Positions 944 through 63,756 of a stretch of 64,000 nucleotides of DNA are shown here, piece by piece. The stretch is from Escherichia phage SP27. The translations under genes were made by a program, and so were the position numbers. Every line of letters begins with the position of its first letter. Position 1 is the stretch's first letter. The DNA lies in the sequence record LC494302.1; one strand, 5' to 3'. The notes below the pieces were generated by a model. That model did not search any database and was not told where the DNA came from. It worked only from the letters and a program-made list of their open reading frames with translations.

Positions 944-1136
944 TCAAGAATGGAAGACCCAAAAGTACAGGGAATTCAACAGGAATTTTACAAAAGATGC
1001 ATTGAATTTAAAAACAACAGAGTTTGATATGTTTATTTTTCTTGGAACACGTTCACAAGAACAATTTGTTCATTATTATATAAATTCGTTGCGAACGGAG
1101 ATAGTATGCAAAACACAGGGTATTATAAAAAGGTAA
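918..1136 (+). CDS. small protein, family B (FLGT..QEQ motif)
   Basis: ORF; motif FIFLGTRSQEQFVHYYINSL shared with 1106, 13552 and 13748 genes. Confidence 0.55.
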   Translation: MKSIYKTINQEWKTQKYREFNRNFTKDALNLKTTEFDMFIFLGTRSQEQFVHYYINSLRTEIVCKTQGIIKR

Positions 1137-1372
1137 ACCAATATTTGTACGCTACAAAGTACAGGGATTTTTGTTTAAAGGGTGGTGATGAAGATTTTTC
1201 TTTGCGATTATCAGAATTTAATCTGTTATTTTATCTTGGTACAAAAGAACAAGAAGAAATGGCACAGAAATTTATCAAGCACCTTTTACAAAAAATTAAT
1301 ATGCAAATTTTGATGCTTAAGTTACAGAATGAGATAAATGAATATGAATCCAGAAATAGTTCAGGATCTTAA
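1106..1372 (+). CDS. small protein, family B
   Basis: ORF; motif LFYLGTKEQEEMAQKFIKHL; tandem to previous paralog. Confidence 0.55.
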   Translation: MQNTGYYKKVNQYLYATKYRDFCLKGGDEDFSLRLSEFNLLFYLGTKEQEEMAQKFIKHLLQKINMQILMLKLQNEINEYESRNSSGS

Positions 1373-1730
1373 AAAAGTAATATTTCTTTTGAATACCAGA
1401 AGTGAATTGTATACAGAGTTAAAAGAGATTAATGCATTTTATCAGAATTTTGTAATCCAAGAGATCAGTGATTTAATTACAGATGCATTATTTGAATTCT
1501 CGGAGAAATACAAAGGTTCAGAGTTCAGTGTTAAGAATGTTATTCGTCCAAGTGCAAGGAAAATTATATTATCACATTTTACATTTGACAATAAAGATTT
1601 ATTCAGTCATAATCCAAGTACAGCTTTATATTTTATTCCTGATTCAGACAAAAATCATCCTATTCATTACGGATGGATTTTGTCATATATAGTACAAGGA
1701 AAGGAGTATCCTATTAAATGGAAAGATTAG
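1338..1730 (+). CDS. hypothetical protein
   Basis: 130-aa ORF, same polarity, overlapping upstream gene end. Confidence 0.55.
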   Translation: MNMNPEIVQDLKKVIFLLNTRSELYTELKEINAFYQNFVIQEISDLITDALFEFSEKYKGSEFSVKNVIRPSARKIILSHFTFDNKDLFSHNPSTALYFIPDSDKNHPIHYGWILSYIVQGKEYPIKWKD

Positions 1731-1878
1731 GGCGATTAGATTATTACACAATTAATACAAATTATTTGTTGCGTAATATAAAATCCGATTACAAAATATG
1801 GATAAAGAACAGAGATAGCATGTGTTATGAATTTTATTTAGATTATGCTATCAAACGATTTTTAAGAGAAGAACATTA

Positions 1879-2082
1879 ATGCAAAAGATTAATACGATAA
1901 CATTAAATGCATTACAGGATTCATTATTAGATAGTATTAAGATGTATTACAATATACATTTGAAGGGTGGTATTGATAATTACGATTATTATTTGAGTTT
2001 AATTACATTTGAGCACCTTTCAGTACAGGACAGGATTTTACATCCTACAAATCCTAGGTATCCATCGATAGGTAAATTATGA
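1879..2082 (+). CDS. hypothetical small protein
   Basis: 67-aa ORF whose stop overlaps next start (ATGA). Confidence 0.45.
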   Translation: MQKINTITLNALQDSLLDSIKMYYNIHLKGGIDNYDYYLSLITFEHLSVQDRILHPTNPRYPSIGKL

Positions 2083-2627
2083 ATGAGATAAAGTTATTAG
2101 CACACAAGATAAGTACAATAATGCTTATCCTCAATAACAACCATCCTATATCGCATATAGATGGAATCCTGAGTCAGAGGACAGGTGGTAGTTTATATTT
2201 GTCCATAAACGCGGATATCGCAAGGAAATACATTGATATTGATGTTGAAATCGAATATGATACAACGGGGATTGTTGATGTAGGTGCATTAATCAGTTCA
2301 AATCCAGTATCAGCATCCCCATTGACCAAAGATGTTAGTACAGGATTCGAAGGATATTTGTGGTACAATACCAATGATGATTATTTTATATATCAGCATT
2401 CCAATACAAATTATGATGAAGACAAATTTCAGTTCATAGACCCTTATGATGAAGCTGAAGTATTTCAAAAATCATTAATCACAAAACCGCATGAGATGAT
2501 GTATCTAATGTTATTCAGTACAATGCATTTGAATCCATTAATTAAAGGTTTAAAATTTTATATTCAATTAAATTTAGTCCATGTAGTTTATGATTTATTA
2601 ATGCAAGGATATAGTTATGAAGTATAA
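2079..2627 (+). CDS. divergent FQxS-family member
   Basis: ORF; degenerate motif DEAEVFQKSLI. Confidence 0.6.
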   Translation: MNEIKLLAHKISTIMLILNNNHPISHIDGILSQRTGGSLYLSINADIARKYIDIDVEIEYDTTGIVDVGALISSNPVSASPLTKDVSTGFEGYLWYNTNDDYFIYQHSNTNYDEDKFQFIDPYDEAEVFQKSLITKPHEMMYLMLFSTMHLNPLIKGLKFYIQLNLVHVVYDLLMQGYSYEV

Positions 2628-2928
2628 AATGATGTATACCCCAGATATGATTTATGTTGAATTAGAAGATGATGACGATGGGTGGAATTTGATTTATTCA
2701 AGAAGTTCAGGTTGGTACATGGCACATTTAAATGATTCGATAGTTACAGATTATTTTGTAGATTTCAATACATTATCCGATGAAGAATTGTTCCAACAGC
2801 AATTAGTGATTGACACGGGTGGTTATGATGTCTTATTATTAAAAAAGATACAGAAAGCTGTTATTGATTTTAAGCCCATGATATGGCAAAGGAAATATTA
2901 TGACCTCGAAGTACCATACCAGCAATGA
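2617..2928 (+). CDS. FQxS-motif paralog family member
   Basis: ORF; motif LSDEELFQQQLVID. Confidence 0.65.
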   Translation: MKYKMMYTPDMIYVELEDDDDGWNLIYSRSSGWYMAHLNDSIVTDYFVDFNTLSDEELFQQQLVIDTGGYDVLLLKKIQKAVIDFKPMIWQRKYYDLEVPYQQ

Positions 2929-3466
2929 AATTCAGTACACCTACGCTAATGCAATCCTTATGGGACAAAAGTTAGCTTGTATTGTTGCAGCCTTATATAA
3001 TGCCCAGAAATATCACAAGCGTCATTTCCACAAATGTATTGGTATTATTCCATCGAAGTACAATACATATATTGCGTGCACGAGTCATTTTGATAAACGA
3101 TTCAATACACCAGATATACCAAATGCCCGTAGTGTTATTGGTCTTTTGGATTTCGCACCTGGTGCTGTTATTGGAAAGAATGATTTAGAGTACGCATGGT
3201 ATAATAAAAATGCCCCGTTAGTAATGGTAACATATGATAAAGAAACGAACAACGCAATAGAGTACAATACATATAAATCAGAGGAAGAATTTTTTCAAGG
3301 TTCAATGCTTGTACCAGTGCGTTTGTTATTTTATAATGTCATAATGAGTACAGTACACAATAGTCCATTACACAAGAATCACAAAATTAATTTCAATTTT
3401 TGTGCTTATGCGATTGATGGTGTGTATGAGTGTTTAATGGAGGTATTGAGTTATGAAGCTGAATAA
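2900..3466 (+). CDS. FQxS-motif paralog family member
   Basis: ORF; motif SEEEFFQGSMLV. Confidence 0.65.
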   Translation: MTSKYHTSNEIQYTYANAILMGQKLACIVAALYNAQKYHKRHFHKCIGIIPSKYNTYIACTSHFDKRFNTPDIPNARSVIGLLDFAPGAVIGKNDLEYAWYNKNAPLVMVTYDKETNNAIEYNTYKSEEEFFQGSMLVPVRLLFYNVIMSTVHNSPLHKNHKINFNFCAYAIDGVYECLMEVLSYEAE

Positions 3467-3794
3467 TACATTTGATATTAATAAGTTAAGAGAATGGTTT
3501 TATAGTATTGAAATTGAAGCCATCCCGTATCATAGATATGAACAATATAATTTAACCAGTATTGATATCAGTGAGTTGTACGCGTATTATCAAAGTGCAT
3601 TAGAGATGCATAAGTTATTTTTGAGTACAGATTTTGTTCTAAATTACAATTTTGAGGAATTTAAAAATTATAATTTAGTACAGAAATATGTAGTAGCAAA
3701 GTACATGTACCTTCAAGGAATTACAAGTATAGTGGAATTCAATACAGTCCTTGCTTTAGTTGAGGTAATTTTATGCAGTACATGTATGATTTAG
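3453..3794 (+). CDS. hypothetical protein
   Basis: 113-aa ORF in gene array, overlapping neighbours. Confidence 0.55.
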   Translation: MKLNNTFDINKLREWFYSIEIEAIPYHRYEQYNLTSIDISELYAYYQSALEMHKLFLSTDFVLNYNFEEFKNYNLVQKYVVAKYMYLQGITSIVEFNTVLALVEVILCSTCMI

Positions 3795-4279
3795 AGTTCA
3801 GCTTAGATGCTGCATTTAAATATGTTCACAAGATAGAAACAATATACAGTACATTATGTGCAATAAAATCAGTAACAGAAGAGCTTGATGTTGGTGAAAA
3901 ATATCAGGTATGGAATAATACATTTTTAAATAAAGAACGTTGCTCTACGGGGTTTAATATTTTAACATTTAATCCCAGCAATTGTTACCCAGAGAAGCAT
4001 GAACGTTATCCGAATGACGACATGTGGTTTGAGTACAAAGAAGATTGTGATATGTCGTTCATTGAAGTTCCTGATGATTTTAATGCACAAGATTTAACAG
4101 ACGAGTGGTGGTTCCAGCAGAATTTAGTCCACGATGATATTGATTTATTTTTTTATGTAGTATTTAAAATGCTTTATCACAACAATATAGTACAAGATAG
4201 TGTATTTTTTTCATGTCTATATATTGATGATTTGTACAATGAAATTCAAATCAACATGCCCAGAACGCCTGTATCGTAA
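3773..4279 (+). CDS. FQxS-motif paralog family member
   Basis: ORF; motif TDEWWFQQNLVHDDID. Confidence 0.65.
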   Translation: MQYMYDLEFSLDAAFKYVHKIETIYSTLCAIKSVTEELDVGEKYQVWNNTFLNKERCSTGFNILTFNPSNCYPEKHERYPNDDMWFEYKEDCDMSFIEVPDDFNAQDLTDEWWFQQNLVHDDIDLFFYVVFKMLYHNNIVQDSVFFSCLYIDDLYNEIQINMPRTPVS

Positions 4280-32296: not shown

Positions 32297-32818
32297 ATGT
32301 CGAAGAAGGATGCTTCGAAAAAACATTCAGTACATTTTAGTACTGGAAAAGATAACTGGACAACTCCAAAGGATTTCTTTGAAGATTTGGATGAACTCTG
32401 GGAATTTACACTAGATGCAGCATGTGTCAAAGAAACTGCATTGTGTGATAATTTTTTCACTCCAGAAGATGATTCACTGTCACAGGATTGGGGAAATAAT
32501 ATAGTTTGGTTGAATCCACCATATAGTGACTTGAAAACTTGGTTATCTAAAGCAGTAGATGCATATAATAACGGGGCAACTGTAGTTATTCTTGTACCCT
32601 CAAGAACCGATACAATTGCTTTTCAGGATTATGCTGCTAAAATATGTGATTGTATTTGTTTTATTAAGGGAAGATTGAGATTTGGTATACCAGAAGAACC
32701 CGATAAGAAAACAGATTCAGCACCATTTCCTTCGTGTCTGATAGTACTGGATAAGTACTTAACCACTGCTAAAATCAATTATCTTAAATCTCTTGGGTTG
32801 GTGATGAAGAATTTATGA
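32297..32818 (+). CDS. DNA N6-adenine methyltransferase (phage Dam-type)
   Basis: WTTPKDFF N-terminal motif and NPPYS catalytic motif. Confidence 0.8.
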   Translation: MSKKDASKKHSVHFSTGKDNWTTPKDFFEDLDELWEFTLDAACVKETALCDNFFTPEDDSLSQDWGNNIVWLNPPYSDLKTWLSKAVDAYNNGATVVILVPSRTDTIAFQDYAAKICDCICFIKGRLRFGIPEEPDKKTDSAPFPSCLIVLDKYLTTAKINYLKSLGLVMKNL

Positions 32819-33348
32819 AAGAAACATGCGTATTAACTTTTGGACGTGTTAATCCCGTACATCGTGGACATGGTTTAGTTTTTGAAAAGGCCAAAACATT
32901 ACAAGAACAGTACAATGCTGATTTAAAAATATATCTAAGCACCAGTACTGACAATATAAAAAACCCACTCCCACCTGAACTAAAAATGTATTATACAGAG
33001 GGATTCTATCCTTCAGTGCAAGAGAACATCTACACAGAAGACAATCTATTTGATATAATGAGAGAACTGGATGGAAAGTACTTAGATGTTCTTTTCATAT
33101 GTGGTTCTGACCGTATTGATTCTTTTCAAAAAACTCTTGACATGTACAATGGTAAGTTGTATAATTTTTGTAGTATAAAAGCAATTCAAGCAGGTATTGA
33201 CCGTAATGTAAGTCAATATAGCTCAACACAAATGCGTAACTTCGCAAAAAATGAAGATTTTGATAGTTTTCGTGAGTTTTTACCTGGAAATGACGAGGAC
33301 TTAAAAATACAATTATTTGAAGACGTTATAAAATACATGAGGAAATAA
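32815..33348 (+). CDS. HxGH nucleotidyltransferase, NMN/NaMN adenylyltransferase-like
   Basis: GRVNPVHRGH (HxGH) and SSTQMR (ISxTxxR-like) motifs; ATGA overlap with Dam gene. Confidence 0.6.
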   Translation: MKETCVLTFGRVNPVHRGHGLVFEKAKTLQEQYNADLKIYLSTSTDNIKNPLPPELKMYYTEGFYPSVQENIYTEDNLFDIMRELDGKYLDVLFICGSDRIDSFQKTLDMYNGKLYNFCSIKAIQAGIDRNVSQYSSTQMRNFAKNEDFDSFREFLPGNDEDLKIQLFEDVIKYMRK

Positions 33349-39850: not shown

Positions 39851-40114
39851 ATGAATATTCAAGATAGATTACAATTACTGTACACACTTGAACAGGCTGC
39901 TTATGATCTTGTTCGAAAAATCTCAGATGAACTACCTAAAGGAACTAAAGTTCGTGTACGTGAGATGAATTATTTTTCTGGAGTAATTGAAGAACAAGTA
40001 CTAACAGTGAATAAAGTAACATACTATGAATCTGAGTTGTCTATTCAGTGTGAATCTGATGATGGATTAATATCATATTATGGAACTGATGTAGATATAG
40101 AGGTAATAAAATGA
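39851..40114 (+). CDS. hypothetical small protein
   Basis: ATG 39851 one nt after upstream stop. Confidence 0.55.
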   Translation: MNIQDRLQLLYTLEQAAYDLVRKISDELPKGTKVRVREMNYFSGVIEEQVLTVNKVTYYESELSIQCESDDGLISYYGTDVDIEVIK

Positions 40115-41253
40115 CCCTTTTGCAAATATATGAAGATTTAATGCACTTATGTAATACAAACGATGCATTCTTTTATGTGGATCATAAAAGTCCTGCTGGT
40201 GGCACGTATCGTGTATTCAGTTATCGTCTAGCATCATACACTGATTTCATGCAACCAAATGCGTTGGAAACCCGTGGCTCTATGTGGGAAATTGATGAAG
40301 AAGGTGACATGATACGTTGTGCAGCACGTACAATGAAAAAGTTCTTCAATGCTTACGAGAATCCTGCTACAATGTTCCCTGCTAACACCACATGCGATGA
40401 CATTGCGGTAGTGATGCCTAAGTTGGATGGCTCGATCATCAGTACTTATCGTGATAATGATGGTGAGATTCGTTGTAAATCACATACTGCATTGTATTCT
40501 GACCATGCGATTAACAGCACTCGACTTATTAACGAGAACCAGAATTTGTATCAGTACATCGACGAAGCGGAACGTTTAGGTTACACAGTTAATATGGAGT
40601 ATACAAGCCCAGAGTACCGAATTGTATTACCATATCAGGTAGAACAACTGTTTGTACTGAACGTTCGTCATCGTGTGAGTGGTGAGTTGCTTTGTGGTAA
40701 AGCACTACGTGATAAGTTTCCATGTCTTGCACAGTACAGTACTAATATGACTGGAAAAGATATTCATCACACTTTTCCGGTACGAAATACCTTCCGTGAA
40801 AGCGTGGAGGAAGTTCATAAAATGCTTGATATTGAGGGTTTTGTGTGCATCCTAAATAATGGGACAATGTGTAAAATAAAGACTGACTGGTACAGTTCAT
40901 TACATCTTACAAAAGATAGTATTATTATTGATTCTCATTTATATGAAGCAGTATTAAATGGTTCAAGTGATGATTTAAAACAATTGTTCAGTACTGATGA
41001 ATATGCTATGCAAAAGATATTAAGAATGGAACAATTGGTATTTTCGTGCTATAATGCATTACAAGATGAAGTAGAAAGCTTCGTCAAGGAACACAAGCAC
41101 TTGGAGCGAAAGGAATTCGCAATGAAGGTTCAGGAGTGTTTAACTAATGAACTGAATCGTCAGGGCTTGGCCTTTGCAATGTATAACAATAAGAAAGTTG
41201 ATTACAAAGAGACTCTTATAAAATACATGAAAATTGTACTAAAGGATTTTTAG
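40111..41253 (+). CDS. rnlA: RNA ligase 1 (T4 Rnl1-like)
   Basis: near-collinear with T4 Rnl1 as recalled: FFYVDHKS..GTYRVFSY, KLDGS ligase motif I, IKTDWY. Confidence 0.9.
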   Translation: MTLLQIYEDLMHLCNTNDAFFYVDHKSPAGGTYRVFSYRLASYTDFMQPNALETRGSMWEIDEEGDMIRCAARTMKKFFNAYENPATMFPANTTCDDIAVVMPKLDGSIISTYRDNDGEIRCKSHTALYSDHAINSTRLINENQNLYQYIDEAERLGYTVNMEYTSPEYRIVLPYQVEQLFVLNVRHRVSGELLCGKALRDKFPCLAQYSTNMTGKDIHHTFPVRNTFRESVEEVHKMLDIEGFVCILNNGTMCKIKTDWYSSLHLTKDSIIIDSHLYEAVLNGSSDDLKQLFSTDEYAMQKILRMEQLVFSCYNALQDEVESFVKEHKHLERKEFAMKVQECLTNELNRQGLAFAMYNNKKVDYKETLIKYMKIVLKDF

Positions 41254-42076: not shown

Positions 42077-43009
42077 ATGCCAACTATCACACTAACAGTT
42101 GGATTGCCTGGGTGTGGTAAAACTACATGGGCAGTGCAAGAGATTAAAAACGCCAAATCCAAGACTATCAACATCAACCGTGATGATATTCGTGAATCTA
42201 TGGCTGGGTCACATGATGCTTACAAATTCAACGATGCTAATGAGCAGTACGTAACTAATTTACAGTTCAGTGCAGCAAATTCAGCAGCAGAGAATGGTTG
42301 GAACATCATCATATCCGATACGAACCTTAAACAACATTTCCGTAATCTATGGAAAGTATGGGCTAAAGATAATGGCTATGATTACAAAGAAAAGAACTTC
42401 TATGATGATTTTGTACCTAATGAAGACCGTGGTGCAGATGTTCATGAATTCTTTAAGATTAAAGAGTTCGTAAAACTTTGCAAGAAATATAATCTCCAGC
42501 GTGAGCGTTCAGTACAAGATAATATCATTGACACTATGGCAGATACGTACTATTATAGTAAAGCATTGCACATTGGTTACTATGGTAATTCACGAGAAGC
42601 TGCTATTATCGTTGATATCGACGGTACTCTTGCTCATAAATGGGGTCGTAATCCTTACGATGAAAGTACTGTTCTTCAGGATACACCTGATGAAGAAGTT
42701 ATTTTGTCTATTATCGCTGAAGCAGTTTTTCATAAACGCAAGATTATCGTCATGAGTGGGCGTACTGAAGGGTGTCGTGCTGATACCGAACAGTGGCTTA
42801 AGAATTGGGGTGTTCCTTACGATGCATTGTTTATGCGAGATATCGATGATAAACGTCCTGATGATGTTGTAAAATTCGACCTGTACATGAAAAATGTGGT
42901 TGATCATTACGATGTTAAAAAGGTATATGATGACCGCGATCAAGTTGTATTCATGTGGCGTAAACTACTTGGGTTGAAAGTTTTCCAAGTGGCTGAAGGA
43001 AATTTCTAA
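42077..43009 (+). CDS. pseT: polynucleotide 5'-kinase / 3'-phosphatase
   Basis: Walker A GLPGCGKTT; phosphatase DxDGT motif VDIDGTLA; T4 Pnk-like C-terminus WQVAEGNF. Confidence 0.9.
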   Translation: MPTITLTVGLPGCGKTTWAVQEIKNAKSKTININRDDIRESMAGSHDAYKFNDANEQYVTNLQFSAANSAAENGWNIIISDTNLKQHFRNLWKVWAKDNGYDYKEKNFYDDFVPNEDRGADVHEFFKIKEFVKLCKKYNLQRERSVQDNIIDTMADTYYYSKALHIGYYGNSREAAIIVDIDGTLAHKWGRNPYDESTVLQDTPDEEVILSIIAEAVFHKRKIIVMSGRTEGCRADTEQWLKNWGVPYDALFMRDIDDKRPDDVVKFDLYMKNVVDHYDVKKVYDDRDQVVFMWRKLLGLKVFQVAEGNF

Positions 43010-47466: not shown

Positions 47467-47694
47467 ATGAAAGTAATTCAAGTTATGGTAGAAAAATACC
47501 AAACTGAAGATGGTCGTATTTTTGATTCAGCTAAACAAGCTGAACACCATGAACGTATTATTTCTGGTGCACGTAAAGTATGTCCTACATGTAATGGAAC
47601 ACAACAAGTACCGTCAGAAGATTACCGCAGCTTTTATGCTTGTCCACACTGTGATGGGAAAGGCTACGTAGAAAAACAAGAGGTATGGAAATGA
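47467..47694 (+). CDS. small zinc-ribbon protein
   Basis: CPTC ... CPHC cysteine pairs. Confidence 0.6.
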   Translation: MKVIQVMVEKYQTEDGRIFDSAKQAEHHERIISGARKVCPTCNGTQQVPSEDYRSFYACPHCDGKGYVEKQEVWK

Positions 47695-48104
47695 AATTGT
47701 ATTGCTTAACTAATATGTACTGCCAAGGTGTCCAAGCTGGTATTCAAGCATTCCATGCTGGTGTTAAACTAATTAAAGAATATGAAGGTACTGCTTTCAG
47801 TACTATTATTGATGAATGGTACTATGAACACGAAACTATTGTAGTACTAAATGCTGGTGGTCATGATAAGTTAAATTCTTATTATAACAACCTTAGCAAA
47901 CAGGGAAAAGTTCCGTTTGCCAAATTCAATGAAGCTGGATTGAATGATGCTATTACCTGTGTAGCAGTACTGTGTACGTCTGAAATGATTGAAGACATGG
48001 CTGTTATGCGTATGAATCTTCCTGCTGGTGATCAACTAATGCAAGTAAAATATGGTGCATTGTTTGACACATTAAAAGCAATCAGCACAATGAGGACCAT
48101 TTGA
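47685..48104 (+). CDS. hypothetical protein
   Basis: ORF; start 47685 or 47691. Confidence 0.6.
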   Translation: MEMKLYCLTNMYCQGVQAGIQAFHAGVKLIKEYEGTAFSTIIDEWYYEHETIVVLNAGGHDKLNSYYNNLSKQGKVPFAKFNEAGLNDAITCVAVLCTSEMIEDMAVMRMNLPAGDQLMQVKYGALFDTLKAISTMRTI

Positions 48105-56386: not shown

Positions 56387-56995
56387 ATGAAAAGACTATG
56401 GCTTGAAGTGATACAAGCAGCAATGTTTCTATTGTTAATAAATTTTCCAGCCAGTGCTGGTATTGAAAGTAAAAATGTGATAAAGTATAATCCTGAAACC
56501 CGAAATGTATATTTCATATCAGATATTACAGATGGGTCACTCAAGAGAATGATAGAGTTGTATGATAAAGAACACTATGATACCATCACAATTACATCTC
56601 CTGGTGGTGATTTTGATGCAGGTATTCGAATGGCAAACTTTGTTAGAGACAATGGGATAAATTTAATTGTTTCTAGGTATTGCAATTCAGCATGTACTGT
56701 GGTATTCTTTAGTGTATCTCCCGAAAAGCGATATATGACAAATCGCTCAGTACTGGGTCTTCATAACATTTCGATTAAAAGTAATGTTACTGATGGTGAT
56801 AATTCATTTGTGTCTGTAAGACAGCTATCAACTTTTACCGAAGAAATGGCAACAAAGGTAGGTTTCCTTTTTTCACTATATGCAGCAAATGGAATCCCAC
56901 CAGAAGTTCTATTTAGAGTTAGTCGTTCTCGTGGTGAAGATGTTGTAATATTAACAAAACCAGAACTGGTTTTTTACGGTTCAGTCAAACAATAA
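56387..56995 (+). CDS. secreted ClpP/S49-fold serine peptidase-like protein
   Basis: signal-peptide-like N-terminus ending ASAG; TSPGGDFDAG motif. Confidence 0.6.
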   Translation: MKRLWLEVIQAAMFLLLINFPASAGIESKNVIKYNPETRNVYFISDITDGSLKRMIELYDKEHYDTITITSPGGDFDAGIRMANFVRDNGINLIVSRYCNSACTVVFFSVSPEKRYMTNRSVLGLHNISIKSNVTDGDNSFVSVRQLSTFTEEMATKVGFLFSLYAANGIPPEVLFRVSRSRGEDVVILTKPELVFYGSVKQ

Positions 56996-57065
56996 AAATA
57001 ATTAAAATAACAGGATGATTATGATGTACTTCCTTTGTTATTAATTATATTGAGATTATATAACT

Positions 57066-57326
57066 ATGACAAACATCCAAAACTTGACATCTATTATTTT
57101 TTATGCTACTGTAGTAATGTATGCTACAGTTATTTTTCTAACAGTTTTCATTTACAAAGATTATCGTAATGGCTTTATTGATCCAACTACAATGAAGTTC
57201 AATTCAAAATTCGAAGCAATAATTTATTATGTACTATCAACTTCATACTTGGTGTGCCTAATGTTGTTAGGAGCACTAATTTATATCTTATACACAACAT
57301 TATTTGCAATTGGAGCTATTTTATGA
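57066..57326 (+). CDS. small membrane protein
   Basis: 86 aa, three hydrophobic segments; ATGA overlap with next gene. Confidence 0.55.
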   Translation: MTNIQNLTSIIFYATVVMYATVIFLTVFIYKDYRNGFIDPTTMKFNSKFEAIIYYVLSTSYLVCLMLLGALIYILYTTLFAIGAIL

Positions 57327-57916
57327 CCTGTATTATTGCACACACTGACGGAGTAAGTTCTTTTATTGCTGGCGATAAGTTAGGAAGCAATGGATTTACA
57401 AAAACTGTTCAAACTGAGCCAAAGGTATTCGAGAAAGAATTTATCAAGTTACATGATGATGGACTAACTAGAACTAAAGAAGTAATGGCATTGGGTTATA
57501 CTACATCATTTCGTATGGGTCAGTTGTTAAATTATAACCTTAATTTACCTGAACAAGCTGCTGGTCAAACATTTTCACAATATTTGGTTCTTAAAGTTAT
57601 TCCAATCATTCGTCAAATGTTTAAAGAAGAATGGGGTTCACGAGATGCATCACAAGATGTAGGTGGTGGACAATTTATCATTCTCCACAATCATACAATC
57701 TATGAAGTTCAAGAAGACTTTTCAGTACTACAACCTAAAACAAGAATTACCGCAGTAGGTAGTGGGACATATCATGCAATTGCAGCAATGCAAGCATATA
57801 TTGAAGTTGAGAACGAATCTAAAAAACCACTACACGAACGTATCAAATCAATTTTTAAAATTGTTAGTGATAATGTAACAAGCGTAAGCGAAGAGTTTGA
57901 TGTTTTAAAATATTAA
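57323..57916 (+). CDS. HslV/proteasome beta-like Ntn hydrolase
   Basis: Thr at position 2 (MTCIIAHTDG..IAGD) and AVGSGTYHAIAAMQAY resemble HslV TTIV..IAGD and GSG..YA.AAA segments. Confidence 0.7.
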   Translation: MTCIIAHTDGVSSFIAGDKLGSNGFTKTVQTEPKVFEKEFIKLHDDGLTRTKEVMALGYTTSFRMGQLLNYNLNLPEQAAGQTFSQYLVLKVIPIIRQMFKEEWGSRDASQDVGGGQFIILHNHTIYEVQEDFSVLQPKTRITAVGSGTYHAIAAMQAYIEVENESKKPLHERIKSIFKIVSDNVTSVSEEFDVLKY

Positions 57917-57943
57917 AAGTACTAATATTATAAGAGAGAATAG

Positions 57944-58138
57944 ATGATGGCATACACAATTTATGAATGGGTTTTGAGTTTTTTTATAGTTTTTTCTATT
58001 GTTGTAATTTATAACAATGCTAAATGCTTATATAGGGACTTGAAATCCAATGGTTATCACAAAGATAATAATTTTATGTATGCCTATCATATTGGAATCA
58101 TTCTGTTATTATCAATATATTTAATTGTTTTTTTATAA
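57944..58138 (+). CDS. small membrane protein
   Basis: 64 aa, two hydrophobic segments. Confidence 0.5.
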   Translation: MMAYTIYEWVLSFFIVFSIVVIYNNAKCLYRDLKSNGYHKDNNFMYAYHIGIILLLSIYLIVFL

Positions 58139-58147
58139 GGATTGAAT

Positions 58148-58900
58148 ATGATATCAGAAAAATTTATAAGAAATGAAGGTAAAAAGCGATTACTGATTAT
58201 ATCAGGTGCAGGACTTTCTGTTGAAAGTGGTATGGAACCTTTTCGATTTGATGATGGTTTGTGGGATACATTTAAAATTAATGATGTATGTAACATTGCG
58301 AGTTTAACTACAAAATATCATGTTGTTCATTCTTTCTATAATACATTACGTGTAAAATTGGGACAATGCGAACCGAATGCAATGCATTATTTTATAAAAT
58401 CGTTAGAAGATCAATATGGTGATTGCTTCCTTCATATGACTTCTAACATGGACGATCTTTATACTCGTATTGGTGGTCATGAGCTTAAACTTCATGGAAA
58501 CTTGTGTGAAGTTATTGAAAATTATAGTATCAATTCCGATGATTATAATGTTATTAACTGCGGATACGAACCATACATACCAAAACATGATGTTTTTGCT
58601 AAACCAAATGTAGTAATGATTGGAGAATATCATCGTTATGTTGATGGTATTCGCTTACCAATTTACGAAGAACGAAATAATGTGTTGAAATCTCTTAATG
58701 AAAATGATACAGTTATTGTAATTGGTAGTAGCGATACAGTACTGGTATGGTCGAGATTAGCAGCAGCATTGCCATGTTATAGTGTTAATGTTAACATTCG
58801 TAAAAATGATAATGATTTTTTGTTTAATGAAAAAGTTATCAAGCCAGCAACCAAAGCAATACCGCATCTAGAGACTATAATTAAGGAACGTATGAAATGA
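58148..58900 (+). CDS. Sir2-like NAD-dependent protein (sirtuin family)
   Basis: GAGLSVESGMEPFR (Sir2 GAGISxxSGIPxFR), LHGN catalytic His motif, VIVIGSS. Confidence 0.7.
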   Translation: MISEKFIRNEGKKRLLIISGAGLSVESGMEPFRFDDGLWDTFKINDVCNIASLTTKYHVVHSFYNTLRVKLGQCEPNAMHYFIKSLEDQYGDCFLHMTSNMDDLYTRIGGHELKLHGNLCEVIENYSINSDDYNVINCGYEPYIPKHDVFAKPNVVMIGEYHRYVDGIRLPIYEERNNVLKSLNENDTVIVIGSSDTVLVWSRLAAALPCYSVNVNIRKNDNDFLFNEKVIKPATKAIPHLETIIKERMK

Positions 58901-59448
58901 GTGTTAAAGAAGTTCCCTTTGGTGAATATGGCACACGTGCAAATTTTGTATTTTGTTATTTCTTTGCAAGAAAATGCAACCCTTACAAAAACTATGAGTT
59001 GAATGATATACCAGAAGTAAATTTAGTATTACTGCAATTACGATGGGATGGTCTTCTTGGTGGATGTGGTGGAACCGTAGAAAGTACTGATATCTCACTA
59101 GAAGATGCGTTGCGTCGTGAAGTTCAAGAAGAAATGGATTACAATATTTTTGTTTCCCATCTTCGACCACTCAAAACTTTTGAAATTTACCCAGGTGCAA
59201 ACAGTCATAGTTTTAGCTATGAAGTGAGCTATGACGAGTTGAAACACATTAGAGATGGATACACTAATGCTAAACATGCAAGTGCAGAAGTTGCTGGTGT
59301 AAATTTATGTCATATTTCTCGTTATTCTAAGGGACAAAATCGAGAAGCGGGATATAATAATCTTATGACACAGAACTTCATCGGTACAGCAAAACAAGAA
59401 TTGGAGTATCTGGTTCAAAAAGAAAACTTACTAATTAGTTATCTATAG
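58897..59448 (+). CDS. Nudix hydrolase
   Basis: Nudix box GGTVESTDISLEDALRREVQEEMDY; ATGA overlap with Sir2-like gene. Confidence 0.8.
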   Translation: MSVKEVPFGEYGTRANFVFCYFFARKCNPYKNYELNDIPEVNLVLLQLRWDGLLGGCGGTVESTDISLEDALRREVQEEMDYNIFVSHLRPLKTFEIYPGANSHSFSYEVSYDELKHIRDGYTNAKHASAEVAGVNLCHISRYSKGQNREAGYNNLMTQNFIGTAKQELEYLVQKENLLISYL

Positions 59449-59457
59449 GAGTTTAAC

Positions 59458-59778
59458 ATGTCTTACTCAATGTTTTTGGATGATATTCGTGATGCAAATC
59501 TATATTATCCAAACCAAGATATGGTGGTATGTCGTGACTTTAAAAGTGCATGTGAATATGTTATTGAAAATGGAATTCCAGCATTTGTATCATTCGACCA
59601 TGACTTGGGTGATGTGAGCGAAGACGAAAAGACTGGATATTCTTTTGCTAAGTTTCTTATTGATTATATGTTTGATAATAATATTAAAGAACCGTTTGAG
59701 TACTTTGTTCACAGTAGTAATCCTGTTGGTAAAATTAATATTGAAACATACTTAAACAATGGATTTAACGCATTATGA
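59458..59778 (+). CDS. hypothetical protein
   Basis: 106-aa ORF. Confidence 0.55.
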   Translation: MSYSMFLDDIRDANLYYPNQDMVVCRDFKSACEYVIENGIPAFVSFDHDLGDVSEDEKTGYSFAKFLIDYMFDNNIKEPFEYFVHSSNPVGKINIETYLNNGFNAL

Positions 59779-60077
59779 TTCAAACACACATCAAAAGTCT
59801 TATTTGTACTGTTCTGTTAGGTGCAGGAGTTCTTTGGTTCGGACAGTATCACGAGAACACTAAGCGTACCAACATTCACTACAATACCGCAGAAGTTGTT
59901 AGTTTAGGACAATGTAGCGAGTCCAAATGTTCATTTATGTATAAAACCCAAAATGGTGAAGTACGTAATGGACTATCAAGAGAACCAGTTTCAATTGGTC
60001 AACTTGTTTACCAGGAGTGCTGGGAAGAAAAGGTTCGAGGTTCACGTTGCTATGTTGAATACGAACCAAATATGTAA
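59775..60077 (+). CDS. hypothetical membrane-anchored protein
   Basis: N-terminal hydrophobic segment LICTVLLGAGVLWF. Confidence 0.55.
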   Translation: MIQTHIKSLICTVLLGAGVLWFGQYHENTKRTNIHYNTAEVVSLGQCSESKCSFMYKTQNGEVRNGLSREPVSIGQLVYQECWEEKVRGSRCYVEYEPNM

Positions 60078-60137
60078 TAATCCGAGTCAATAACATTAGT
60101 CGAGTACAAGGATGTACTCATAACTCAAGGATGTTTT

Positions 60138-61577
60138 ATGAAAAAATATACAATTGACACAAACGTACTACTATCTGACCCTAATGCATCTATTGCTTTT
60201 GATGGTGCTACAATCATTCTACCATTTACAGTACTGGAAGAATTGGATTCAATTAAGAGTCGTAATGTAGATGTTTCACGCGATGCTCGTGTTGCTATTC
60301 GTAACATTGAAGCAATTATTGCAGATGCATCACATGATGAGATTAGTAGTACTGGTGTTAATATTGCTGATGTTCATACCAATATGAATCCTGATAGCAA
60401 ATTGTTTGTTATTACAAACGAAGAAGCTGAAGCACTAATTCGTACTAAAGGTTCAGAAGAGAAAGTTCAAACCCTTCTCAAAAGCACAGTACCTGATGAT
60501 AAAATCATTCTGGTAGCTTTAGCAACAGAATCAGTACTGGTAACTCGTGATATCAACATGCGTATCAAAGCACTAAGTTATGGTGTCGAGGTACAAGATT
60601 ATCGCCATGATATTGTTATTGGTGATAGTGATTTGATTCACATTGGTCAACACCATTTGGAAATTAATTTTTGGGAAGTATATAGCAACTTAACCAATAC
60701 TAATATTCAATCCGAACAAGTTGGTCGTCGTTTGTATCATTACATTTCTAAAAGCTTGATTGAACATTTGCTTCCACAAAATCTATGCATCGGTGATTAT
60801 CTATATGATGATGCAGACGTATTATTTGTGTACGAAGGTCAATCAGCAATTGAGGAAGATGATGGAACACTAACACCAGAAGATATTTTGGTATTCCAAG
60901 ATATTGGACAATCAGTAGCTTTACGTGCTAAAGTATGGGATATTAAAGCAAAGAATATCCAACAAGCACTCGCCATCAACAGTATTCTCGATCCTGATGT
61001 ACATCTAACAGTACTGCTAGGTTCTGCTGGTACTGGTAAAACACTAATTACGATTGCTACTGCATTAGAATTAGTACTGGAAAAACGTAAATACGACCGA
61101 ATCATCTTCTCTAAAACTCAAGACTCACAGTTTGAAGATATTGGTTTCTTGCCAGGTTCAGAAGCAGAAAAAGTGATTCCATTCTGTGGAGCCGCAATTG
61201 ACGCGTTAGAGTTTCTTCATAAAGATGATGCTAACCCACAAGGTAGTATTGAAGAGATTATGAAACGTAATGTTATTCAATTTAAAGCACTAAACTTTGT
61301 ACGTGGACGTTCATTCACCAACACTATTCTAGTAGTTGATGAATTCCAAAACATTACACCTGCACAAGCCAAAACAATCTTGACACGAGCAGGATTAAAC
61401 TGTAAAGTAGTAATTATGGGTAACTTGAGTCAGATTGACAGTAAGTTTATTAGTCCTGTTAACAGTGGTTTGACATATGTAACTGAGAAGTTTAAAGATT
61501 GGGCAGGTTGTCGTGTCATCGAACTAGAAGGTGTTGTTCGTTCACCACTTGCAGAATTTGCTGAAGAAAATATGTAA
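60138..61577 (+). CDS. phoH: PIN-domain PhoH-like ATPase
   Basis: N-terminal PIN-like YTIDTNVLL; Walker A GSAGTGKT; 479 aa. Confidence 0.85.
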   Translation: MKKYTIDTNVLLSDPNASIAFDGATIILPFTVLEELDSIKSRNVDVSRDARVAIRNIEAIIADASHDEISSTGVNIADVHTNMNPDSKLFVITNEEAEALIRTKGSEEKVQTLLKSTVPDDKIILVALATESVLVTRDINMRIKALSYGVEVQDYRHDIVIGDSDLIHIGQHHLEINFWEVYSNLTNTNIQSEQVGRRLYHYISKSLIEHLLPQNLCIGDYLYDDADVLFVYEGQSAIEEDDGTLTPEDILVFQDIGQSVALRAKVWDIKAKNIQQALAINSILDPDVHLTVLLGSAGTGKTLITIATALELVLEKRKYDRIIFSKTQDSQFEDIGFLPGSEAEKVIPFCGAAIDALEFLHKDDANPQGSIEEIMKRNVIQFKALNFVRGRSFTNTILVVDEFQNITPAQAKTILTRAGLNCKVVIMGNLSQIDSKFISPVNSGLTYVTEKFKDWAGCRVIELEGVVRSPLAEFAEENM

Positions 61578-61834: not shown

Positions 61835-61948
61835 TTCATTTGAAGACATATTGTGGAGTTCTTAATAAATACTTTTATAAGAATAATAATACTTTTTATT
61901 AAATTAAAAAGAACTCCATGTGTTATTTCAGTTTTTCGTCCCTGTCTT

Positions 61949-61975
61949 TTGGCAGGGATTTTTTATATCTATATC
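61949..61975 (+). terminator. intrinsic terminator
   Basis: 8-bp stem TCCCTGTC/GGCAGGGA, loop TTTT, T6; preceded by a 10-bp inverted repeat with AT-rich loop (61864-61928). Confidence 0.7.
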
Positions 61976-63666: not shown

Positions 63667-63756
63667 ATGAGTTCAGAAGAGATGGAACGTGAGTTCCTTA
63701 CTTACATGAATGTTAAACTAGCCAAATGGCGTAAATCAATTCAATAGGTATTTTAA

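Follow-up and report, generated by a model that had tools for sequence, protein, structure and literature searches.

A conserved sirtuin-Nudix-cREC gene block in Escherichia phage SP27 and its possible role in NAD-dependent RNA-end processing

Gene content and organization of the sirtuin block

The stretch of DNA analysed here (hereafter the window) comprises 64,000 nucleotides of Escherichia phage SP27 (sequence record LC494302.1) and carries, towards its 3' end, a block of five genes that are read in one direction. The block spans positions 58148-61577, its genes being separated by -4 to +60 nt, and encodes a sirtuin (Sir2), a Nudix hydrolase, a cREC (cyclic-phosphate-processing receiver-like) domain protein, a small membrane protein and a protein combining PIN and PhoH domains (Table 1). 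Window positions 57000-61000 are 99.9% identical to the minus strand of Escherichia phage PBECO4 (NC_027364.1), an Asteriusvirus and jumbo myovirus of 348 kb, and approximately 30 other close relatives match the same interval. Genome-wide statements refer to the RefSeq record of PBECO4 (NC_027364.1), whose gene numbers are used throughout, and coordinates are those of the open reading frames (ORFs) of the window, a single offset to the RefSeq record being 3 nt off upstream of approximately 51.5 kb. The neighbourhood sample consisted of 63 loci with sirtuin relatives, taken from viral contigs and annotated by a local hidden Markov model scan, and the jumbo phage comparison set of 16 related Rak2-like loci, 15 of which are complete.

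All 15 complete Rak2-like loci show one and the same gene order, Sir2, Nudt16-like Nudix, cREC, membrane protein, PIN-PhoH, and the identity of their sirtuins to that of PBECO4 ranges from 41 to 99%. The small membrane protein is found at the equivalent position in each of them, and in nine of the 15 the Nudix and cREC domains form a single polypeptide. The spacing between the Sir2 and Nudix genes is -55 to +11 nt in 11 of these loci, approximately 375 nt being inserted in the other four. This invariant order argues that the functional unit is the five-gene block and not a two-gene pair. A first-pass annotation, generated by a model from the letters of the window, had proposed the Sir2 and Nudix genes as an NAD/ADP-ribose pair; their tight linkage is upheld and both active sites are intact in the sequence, but the unit is larger. 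The cREC gene, which starts 10 nt after the Nudix stop codon, the membrane protein and the PIN-PhoH gene had been passed over in that annotation.

Table 1. Coordinates of the sirtuin block and of other features of the window, with gene numbers of phage PBECO4.
Feature	Gene	Length (aa)	Position	Strand	Evidence and remarks
Zinc-less CobB/Sirt5-like sirtuin	gp095	250	58148..58900	+	Pfam SIR2, phrog_2162, AF2/Foldseek
NUDT16/X29-like Nudix hydrolase	gp094	183	58897..59448	+	Pfam Nudt16-like and NUDIX, PDB X29/NUDT16
cREC domain protein	gp093	106	59458..59778	+	Pfam PF20274, phrog_1479
Small membrane protein	gp092	100	59775..60077	+	Overlaps cREC stop; phrog_14661 1.2e-44
PIN + PhoH protein (PhoH2-like RNA helicase/RNase architecture)	gp091	479	60138..61577	+	Pfam PIN_4 7e-20, PhoH 7e-44
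Small hydrophobic ORF		64	57944..58138	+	ORF list, no Pfam match; block membership uncertain
HIGH-superfamily nucleotidyltransferase	gp147	177	32815..33348	+	HxGH/SSTxxR motifs; judged outside the module
T4-type RNA ligase 1 (Rnl1)			40111..41253	+	Pfam RNA_lig_T4_1 9e-16, T4_Rnl1_C 7e-17; possible pathway partner, 17 kb upstream of the block
T4-type polynucleotide kinase-phosphatase (Pnkp)			42077..43009	+	HAD_PNKP 9e-44, AAA_33 kinase 3.5e-13; possible pathway partner
PTH2-like peptidyl-tRNA hydrolase			47685-48104	as Sir2 block	

A sirtuin of the CobB/Sirt5 type lacking the zinc ribbon

The ATG start codon of the Sir2 gene is preceded by an AAGGA Shine-Dalgarno sequence, the mechanically assigned start being a TTG at position 58142. 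Its product matches Pfam PF02146 SIR2 at E=3.6e-20 (73.1 bits where the cut-off is 24, with profile positions 1-178 of 180 covered) and phrog_2162 at 3e-77; as for the Nudix protein described below, the Pfam match is not due to chance. The motifs GAGLSVESGMEPFR, TSNMDD and LHG are present and are conserved throughout the phage clade, and residues G20-A21-G22-x-S24, F32-R33, N100, D102/D103 and H116-G117 are invariant or at least 90% conserved in two alignments (A1 and A2). The GAGxS, FR and HG motifs reported in the first-pass annotation are thus borne out across the clade, and no loss of NAD-binding residues was seen on alignment, the active-site residues of both the Sir2 and the Nudix protein being intact.

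The subclassification by homology and structure that had been recommended was carried out and places the protein with the CobB/Sirt5-like sirtuins. Its closest sequence match in the PDB is E. coli CobB (5.7e-22, full length), and its AlphaFold2 (AF2) model, with a predicted local distance difference test score (pLDDT) of 91.5, retrieves CobB as the top fold in Foldseek with a template modelling (TM) score of 0.77-0.85, followed by archaeal Sir2 and Sirt5, each of the leading folds being that of a canonical deacylase sirtuin. The PADLOC models of SIR2 effectors (ThsA, DSR1/2, SIR2-HerA and pAgo-associated types) yielded no family at E<=0.01. On both counts, the reading of the protein as a defence-type SIR2 NADase was rejected.

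The likeness to CobB and Sirt5 comprises the Rossmann NAD-binding motifs, the catalytic His-Gly, the Asn and Asp residues and the overall fold, whereas the identity is only approximately 28% and several hallmarks are missing. The four-cysteine zinc ribbon of CobB (VRC...CHCC) has no counterpart in any member of the phage clade, although membership of the superfamily still stands. The Tyr-x-x-Arg (YxxR) pair with which class III sirtuins of acidic-acyl specificity bind the succinyl/malonyl carboxylate is not preserved in PBECO4, where the segment reads Y64-N-T-L67-R68, with Leu at the position of the Arg and the Arg shifted by one; the arginine is retained in the T5 and rV5 homologues. The NCBIfam CobB models remain far under their cut-offs (93 bits against 318). 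In addition, the clade has invariant residues of its own (V47-C48-x-I50, H61, Y64, R68, E121, G139-Y140 and W201), and its genomic context consists of RNA-end enzymes instead of acyl-CoA metabolism. By tblastn, the clade is represented in 974 phage records, among them T5, rV5-like, phi92-like and Vibrio phages and the Rak2-like jumbo phages. A metagenomic Sir2 homologue with 63% identity (P0013), in which GNG replaces GAG and the FR motif is missing, may be catalytically dead.

The Nudix hydrolase and the cREC domain

The last codons of the Sir2 gene read ATG AAA TGA, and the start codon of the Nudix gene overlaps the stop codon as ATGA (58897-58900), as had been noted in the first pass; an AAGGA sequence lies 8-12 nt upstream of this ATG. 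The Nudix protein matches Pfam PF22327 Nudt16-like at E=1.3e-18 (67.9 bits against a cut-off of 27) and Pfam NUDIX at 7e-7, and its best sequence matches in the PDB are X29 (2.8e-12) and NUDT16 (approximately 1e-11). Residues E62, R74, E75, E78 and E79 of the Nudix box are conserved in 16 of 16 sequences, and the box that had been called canonical keeps its REVQEE glutamates, but it is spaced in the manner of NUDT16/X29 proteins (G-x5-E-x11-REUxEE, D taking the place of the final G) and is not strictly canonical.

The resemblance to NUDT16 and to Xenopus X29 extends over approximately 140 aligned residues and includes the glutamates and the extended spacing of the box, in addition to a Pfam Nudt16-like score above the threshold. 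The phage protein differs in its length of 183 aa, in an identity of approximately 25-30% over the aligned region and in its linkage or fusion to cREC, and its function is predicted from sequence. The targets of characterised NUDT16/X29 family members are RNA 5' caps and the pyrophosphate bonds of ADP-ribose, and NUDT16 also cuts protein-linked ADP-ribose (PMC8883491).

The product of the following gene matches cREC_REC (PF20274) at E=1.5e-22 (80.5 bits against a cut-off of 27), and among 24 sequences its residues D8, D9, D47, D49, H85 and N88 show a conservation of at least 90%. The domain was defined, and its function predicted, in a 2021 survey of jumbo phages (PMC7824862), whose authors later reported it in up to 18% of jumbo phages (Iyer et al. 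2022, PMC9503650). The repeated fusion of Nudix and cREC suggests that the two domains probably share one substrate. For the last gene of the block, the NCBIfam model of the RNA 5'-3' helicase PhoH2 scores 2e-44, under its cut-off.

Sirtuin neighbourhoods in related and unrelated phages

In most jumbo relatives the block is preceded by further genes. Upstream of Sir2, Erwinia phage Hallingskeid and Pectobacterium phage CBB carry genes for NMNAT-Nudix and Nampt and then a small 2H gene. Nampt and NMNAT-Nudix are present in 15 of the 16 jumbo loci, 2-7 kb upstream and on the same strand (for instance at 1031-4190 in locus L010 and at 640-3847 in L011), and the 2H gene is found directly upstream of Sir2 in 14 of the 16 (5548-5979 in L010; 5273-5719 in L011), where it matches Pfam Acb1 (anti-CBASS) with 56-58 bits against a cut-off of 27. 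The same 2H gene was treated as an RNA-repair 2H enzyme by Iyer et al. (2022, PMC9503650). Among the 16 jumbo loci, all three genes are missing only in the 121Q/PBECO4 lineage, and the 64-aa hydrophobic ORF of the window occupies the site where relatives carry the Acb1-like 2H gene.

This loss is not compensated elsewhere in PBECO4. No Nampt, Namat, Adps, PnuC or NadR gene is annotated in the whole 348-kb genome; two Nampt and two NMNAT-Nudix queries gave a best E=0.095 against it by tblastn, and the NARP1 pair (Adps and Namat) from locus L058 gave nothing at E<=1. The absence of a Nampt partner that had been recorded for the window thus extends to the genome, and a complete NAD salvage or reconstitution pathway was rejected for PBECO4 on the strength of the full annotation scan and tblastn.

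NAD-reconstitution genes also accompany sirtuins outside the jumbo group. In approximately nine loci of myoviruses of about 146 kb, a NARP1-type pair (a NAPRTase-family and a PRPP-synthetase-like gene) lies 5-7 kb from an RNA ligase-cREC-Sir2 cluster (for example L058 604-3178 and L075 3067-6371). No NARP3 pair (PnuC and NadR) was seen within 5 kb of the T5 sirtuin, and the NARP3 paper makes no mention of such a linkage. NARP1 (Adps and Namat) and NARP2 (Nampt and NMNAT, phage KVP40 type) are found within a few kb of the Sir2 blocks of relatives, whereas Sir2, Nudix and cREC are components of neither, and both pathways are absent from PBECO4. Nampt plus NMNAT constitute NARP2, which has been shown experimentally to defeat NAD-depleting defences (10.1101/2024.02.11.579819). 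The presence of such operons near sirtuin blocks in two unrelated lineages could also reflect the feeding of an NAD-consuming phage enzyme.

The other recurrent neighbours of the sirtuin are RNA-end enzymes. In phage rV5_ev168, an Rnl1-type RNA ligase gene is followed by cREC and Sir2, with a polynucleotide kinase, a phosphoesterase and a cluster of six tRNAs just upstream, while in T5 and approximately 27 T5-like loci the gene after Sir2 encodes a HAD_SAK_2 'Swiss-army-knife RNA repair' phosphatase. The three types of sirtuin neighbourhood (jumbo, rV5-like and T5-like) were described by Iyer, Burroughs, Anantharaman and Aravind (Viruses 14:1977, 2022; PMC9503650, section 3.7.3). Their type 1, with Serratia phage BF as the prototype, is a computational prediction and consists of a sirtuin, 2H, Nudix and cREC together with a PIN endoRNase. 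PBECO4 resembles it in the sirtuin clade, in the Nudix/cREC/PIN order, Nudix and cREC being fused or split depending on the phage, and in belonging to the Rak2-like jumbo group; PBECO4 and 121Q differ from it in having no 2H gene, nor the adjacent Nampt and NMNAT-Nudix genes of most relatives. The block is consequently a reduced variant, devoid of 2H and NARP2 genes, of a neighbourhood type that had already been published, and its genes were already annotated, gp095 as 'Sir2 (NAD-dependent deacetylase)' and gp094 as 'nudix hydrolase' in GenBank/RefSeq.

A possible function in NAD-dependent RNA-end processing

The explanation that we tentatively prefer, and to which we give somewhat less than an even chance, is that the five-gene block uses up NAD+ in processing a phosphorylated RNA end, as predicted by Iyer et al. 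(2022). These authors predicted that the sirtuin clade is KptA/Tpt1-like and removes RNA 2'-phosphates in an NAD-dependent manner, and that 2H, cREC, HAD and Nudix proteins serve either to prepare the RNA end or to break down the resulting ADP-ribose cyclic phosphate (PMC9503650). The family memberships, the intact active sites, the gene order with its conservation and the Nudix-cREC fusion are directly established, and these data reproduce the prediction without proving it, the substrate of every enzyme being inferred.

In the proposed pathway, an oxygen of the substrate would attack C1'' of the NAD+ bound by the zinc-less sirtuin, nicotinamide would leave, and the ribose 2''-OH, activated by the catalytic histidine, would attack next. 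With an RNA 2'-phosphate in place of acyl-lysine as the substrate, the sirtuin would be analogous to Tpt1/KptA, and ADP-ribose 1'',2''-cyclic phosphate would be set free. The cREC protein would open the cyclic phosphate and the Nudix hydrolase would cleave the pyrophosphate to yield AMP and ribose bisphosphate, while healing, trimming and sealing of the RNA would fall to Pnkp, Rnl1 and the PIN-PhoH helicase/nuclease of the phage. ADP-ribose 1'',2''-cyclic phosphate would suit a substrate shared by Nudix and cREC, since it contains a pyrophosphate as well as a cyclic phosphate.

RNA-end processing is favoured by the fact that RNA-end enzymes adjoin the sirtuin in three unrelated phage lineages, by the membership of the Nudix protein in the NUDT16 family, which cleaves RNA caps and ADP-ribose pyrophosphates, and by sirtuin chemistry, which, judging from the established mechanisms, would map directly onto the Tpt1 reaction. 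The conserved gene order of the block counts in the same direction, as does the retention of catalytic residues in all of sirtuin, Nudix and cREC, as possibly does the presence of Rnl1 and Pnkp on the same strand in PBECO4. The reaction of Tpt1 yields ADP-ribose cyclic phosphate (PMC8883491), and the Tpt1/KptA pathway, in which clean-up is performed by the 2H protein Cpd1 and the macro protein Poa1, would by analogy share with the phage block the NAD+-dependent removal of a 2'-phosphate with formation of ADP-ribose 1'',2''-cyclic phosphate (PMC8883491; PMC9503650). There is, however, no homology between the two: Tpt1 has an ADP-ribosyltransferase fold and not that of a sirtuin, and clean-up would be carried out by cREC and Nudix rather than by 2H and macro proteins.

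A more specific version is possible but, in our estimate, doubtful: the sirtuin clade would be a convergent analogue of Tpt1, that is, an RNA or nucleic-acid phosphate ADP-ribosyltransferase/2'-phosphotransferase and not a lysine deacylase, with Nudix-cREC as a new two-step route for the disposal of ADP-ribose cyclic phosphate, and the neighbouring NARP1 and NARP2 genes would at least in part serve to feed the sirtuin. If true, sirtuins would gain a nucleic-acid class of substrates, phages would gain a second, non-homologous route to Tpt1 chemistry, and the cREC domain would receive its first function. One biochemical result would then re-annotate a large family, found in approximately 970 phages including the model phage T5, that is at present labelled 'NAD-dependent deacetylase'. 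The adjacency to NAD+-reconstitution operons suggests that these operons may serve the NAD+ demand of the phage in addition to counter-defence.

Several points weigh against RNA-end processing. The nearest relatives of the sirtuin, in sequence and in fold, are the lysine deacylases CobB and Sirt5, and the argument is partly circular, since the function of cREC is itself a prediction from context. Repair by T4-type Pnkp and Rnl1 leaves no 2'-phosphate, so that a Tpt1-like step is not obviously needed, and E. coli already has KptA. PBECO4 is without the 2H gene that would make the 2'-phosphate end, a search of its genome by tblastn for a 2H/Acb1-like gene giving a best E=0.23, and its six tRNA genes are located approximately 140 kb from the block; that tRNA genes adjoin the block holds for rV5-like phages and was rejected for PBECO4. 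The phage sirtuins are acidic, with isoelectric points of 4.6-6.3, unlike typical RNA-binding proteins, which makes charge as a hint of RNA binding uninformative or mildly unfavourable. The block of the relatives is flanked by NARP2-type and Acb1-like genes, which fit counter-defence equally well, and literature searches turned up no experimental study of a phage sirtuin or of a cREC domain.

Counter-defence and protein modification as alternative functions

The Acb1-like and NARP2 neighbours bear most directly on a role in counter-defence, which we consider rather unlikely. Here the sirtuin and Nudix-cREC would make or destroy soluble derivatives of ADP-ribose (ADP-ribose itself, cyclic ADP-ribose isomers or ADP-ribose phosphates) as part of an anti-defence island, and host immune signalling or NAD-depletion defences would be blunted. 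This is the closest version of the idea put forward in the first-pass annotation, and gene positions speak for it: the NARP2 pair, Nampt plus NMNAT-Nudix, lies upstream in all but one of the jumbo loci, the 2H gene that scores as Acb1 directly precedes Sir2 in all but two, and the NARP1-type pair accompanies the sirtuin cluster of the 146-kb myoviruses. Iyer et al. also discussed Nudix and cREC as degraders of soluble ADP-ribose derivatives. PBECO4, however, has retained the five-gene block despite the loss of Nampt, NMNAT-Nudix and 2H, which indicates that the block works without them. A sirtuin that consumes NAD+ would be an odd component of a module that protects NAD+, and the nearby NAD-reconstitution genes can equally be explained as the supply line of an NAD-consuming phage enzyme. 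Moreover, NUDT16-like and cREC proteins have no known immune signal as a documented substrate, and the RNA ligase and HAD-SAK neighbours of other lineages would be left unexplained. A role against NAD-depleting defences is thus not favoured, given the neighbours for RNA-end healing and sealing in three phage lineages and a sirtuin of the canonical CobB-like type.

The same CobB-like character is the starting point of a second alternative, in which the sirtuin is a lysine deacylase like CobB, or a protein ADP-ribosyltransferase, that reprograms host or phage proteins, with the Nudix hydrolase clearing O-acyl-ADP-ribose or trimming protein-bound ADP-ribose. By sequence as well as by structure, CobB and Sirt5 are the best matches over the full length, and no catalytic residue is missing. 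Positions Y64 and R68, which lie in the acyl-binding helix of class III, are invariant, and the T5 and rV5 homologues retain the YxxR arginine. In addition, ADP-ribose linked to proteins is cut by NUDT16 (PMC8883491), and the GenBank annotation of the Sir2 gene agrees. We nevertheless regard this function as unlikely. The zinc cysteines belong to the small domain, which helps to form the peptide cleft, and their loss is clade-wide; the YxxR arginine is a Leu in PBECO4, and the NCBIfam CobB score falls well short of its cut-off. Under deacylation, cREC, its fusion with Nudix and the recurrent neighbours (RNA ligase, polynucleotide kinase and HAD-SAK) would also have no part to play.

The distant nucleotidyltransferase gp147

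The first-pass annotation had further included in the module an NMN adenylyltransferase (NMNAT)-like gene, which corresponds to gp147 (Table 1), labelled 'cytidyltransferase' in GenBank/RefSeq. The ORF with its HxGH/SSTxxR motifs exists: they read H16-R-G-H19 and S135-S136-T-x-x-R141, with H19 and R141 invariant in the alignment of the family (A3). These motifs mark the whole HIGH superfamily and not NMNAT alone, and the protein is not specifically NMNAT-like. It remains under every curated cut-off, with 17.1 bits against 21 for CTP_transf_like and 19.8 against 112 for the NaMN/NMN adenylyltransferase model TIGR00482, whereas it matches phrog_3041 'cytidyltransferase' at 1e-57. A sequence search of the PDB gave no match, and pairwise BLAST against genuine phage NMNAT-Nudix proteins returned only patches around the motifs. 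When the family profile was compared with the PDB, phosphopantetheine adenylyltransferase (PPAT) was the best match (1.5e-6, full length), NMNATs being matched only in the N-terminal motif region, while for the AF2 model (pLDDT 96.2) Foldseek placed NaMNAT/NMNAT and PPAT in a tie (TM 0.55-0.66).

The family to which gp147 belongs is the 'cytitidyltransferase' of T4-like cyanophages, found in 559 phage records of which 375 are from Synechococcus phages, and in Yersinia phage fHe-Yen9-04 one of its members coexists with a genuine NMNAT-Nudix. An exhaustive HMMER search extended the family to more than 2,700 representative clusters, many of which are N-terminal domains of proteins of 500-1,400 aa that also contain DUF5824 or zeta-toxin-like kinase domains; the only other fusion partner to turn up was an intein fragment, and no function emerged from these partners. 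The gene is also unlinked to the sirtuin block, at a distance of 25 kb, and overlaps by ATGA the stop codon of a gene for a Dam-family N6-adenine methyltransferase (PF05869, E=2e-31; the two genes together span 32297-33348), so that its place in the module was not sustained. The specific assignment as NMNAT was rejected in view of the profile scores below the cut-offs, the tie with or better match to PPAT, the cyanophage family and the lack of linkage. Phage NAD salvage or biosynthesis with gp147 as the NMNAT, to which the HxGH and SSTxxR motifs, the weak matches to TIGR00482 and to NMNAT N-termini and the NaMNAT and NMNAT folds among the top matches would point, is very improbable, considering the better full-length match of PPAT, the coupling to the Dam-like methylase, the cyanophage affiliation and the empty searches of PBECO4 for Nampt, Namat, Adps, NMNAT-Nudix, PnuC and NadR, the last two by annotation.

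Other genes of the window and of PBECO4

Counted with the PTH2-like peptidyl-tRNA hydrolase, Rnl1 and Pnkp make up a tRNA repair set of the T4 type, which shares the strand of the Sir2 block and lies 15-18 kb upstream of it. An ATP-dependent DNA ligase is also encoded in the window. Genes for a macro-domain protein, two additional Nudix proteins, a MazG-like pyrophosphatase and a CCA-adding enzyme occur elsewhere in the PBECO4 genome; the macro-domain gene, the second Nudix gene and the gene for the CCA-adding tRNA nucleotidyltransferase are located close together outside the window (NC_027364.1, 25669-27374 and 28598-27486), and represent a possible ADP-ribose/RNA-end cluster.

Two putative peptidases are encoded just upstream of the block, a weakly ClpP-like protein (56387-56995) and a member of the HslV family (57323-57916, phrog_1040), and an HslV-like gene is also found between the Nampt and 2H genes in three related loci (L017, L019 and L021). 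A scan for promoters and terminators gave counts not above those of shuffled controls, its sole usable feature being a hairpin that resembles a terminator and lies downstream of the block, at 61938-61959. Positions 1-31000 of the window (RefSeq gp155-gp212) contain approximately 55 co-directional hypothetical genes, mostly of 100-200 aa and unannotated, some of which may be paralogues. From approximately position 63754 to the end of the window (L001 14755-15726), a protein of 323 aa is encoded whose N-terminal 250 residues have no Pfam match and whose C-terminus carries a WGR domain (PF05406, E=1e-10), which is otherwise characteristic of poly(ADP-ribose) polymerases (PARPs).

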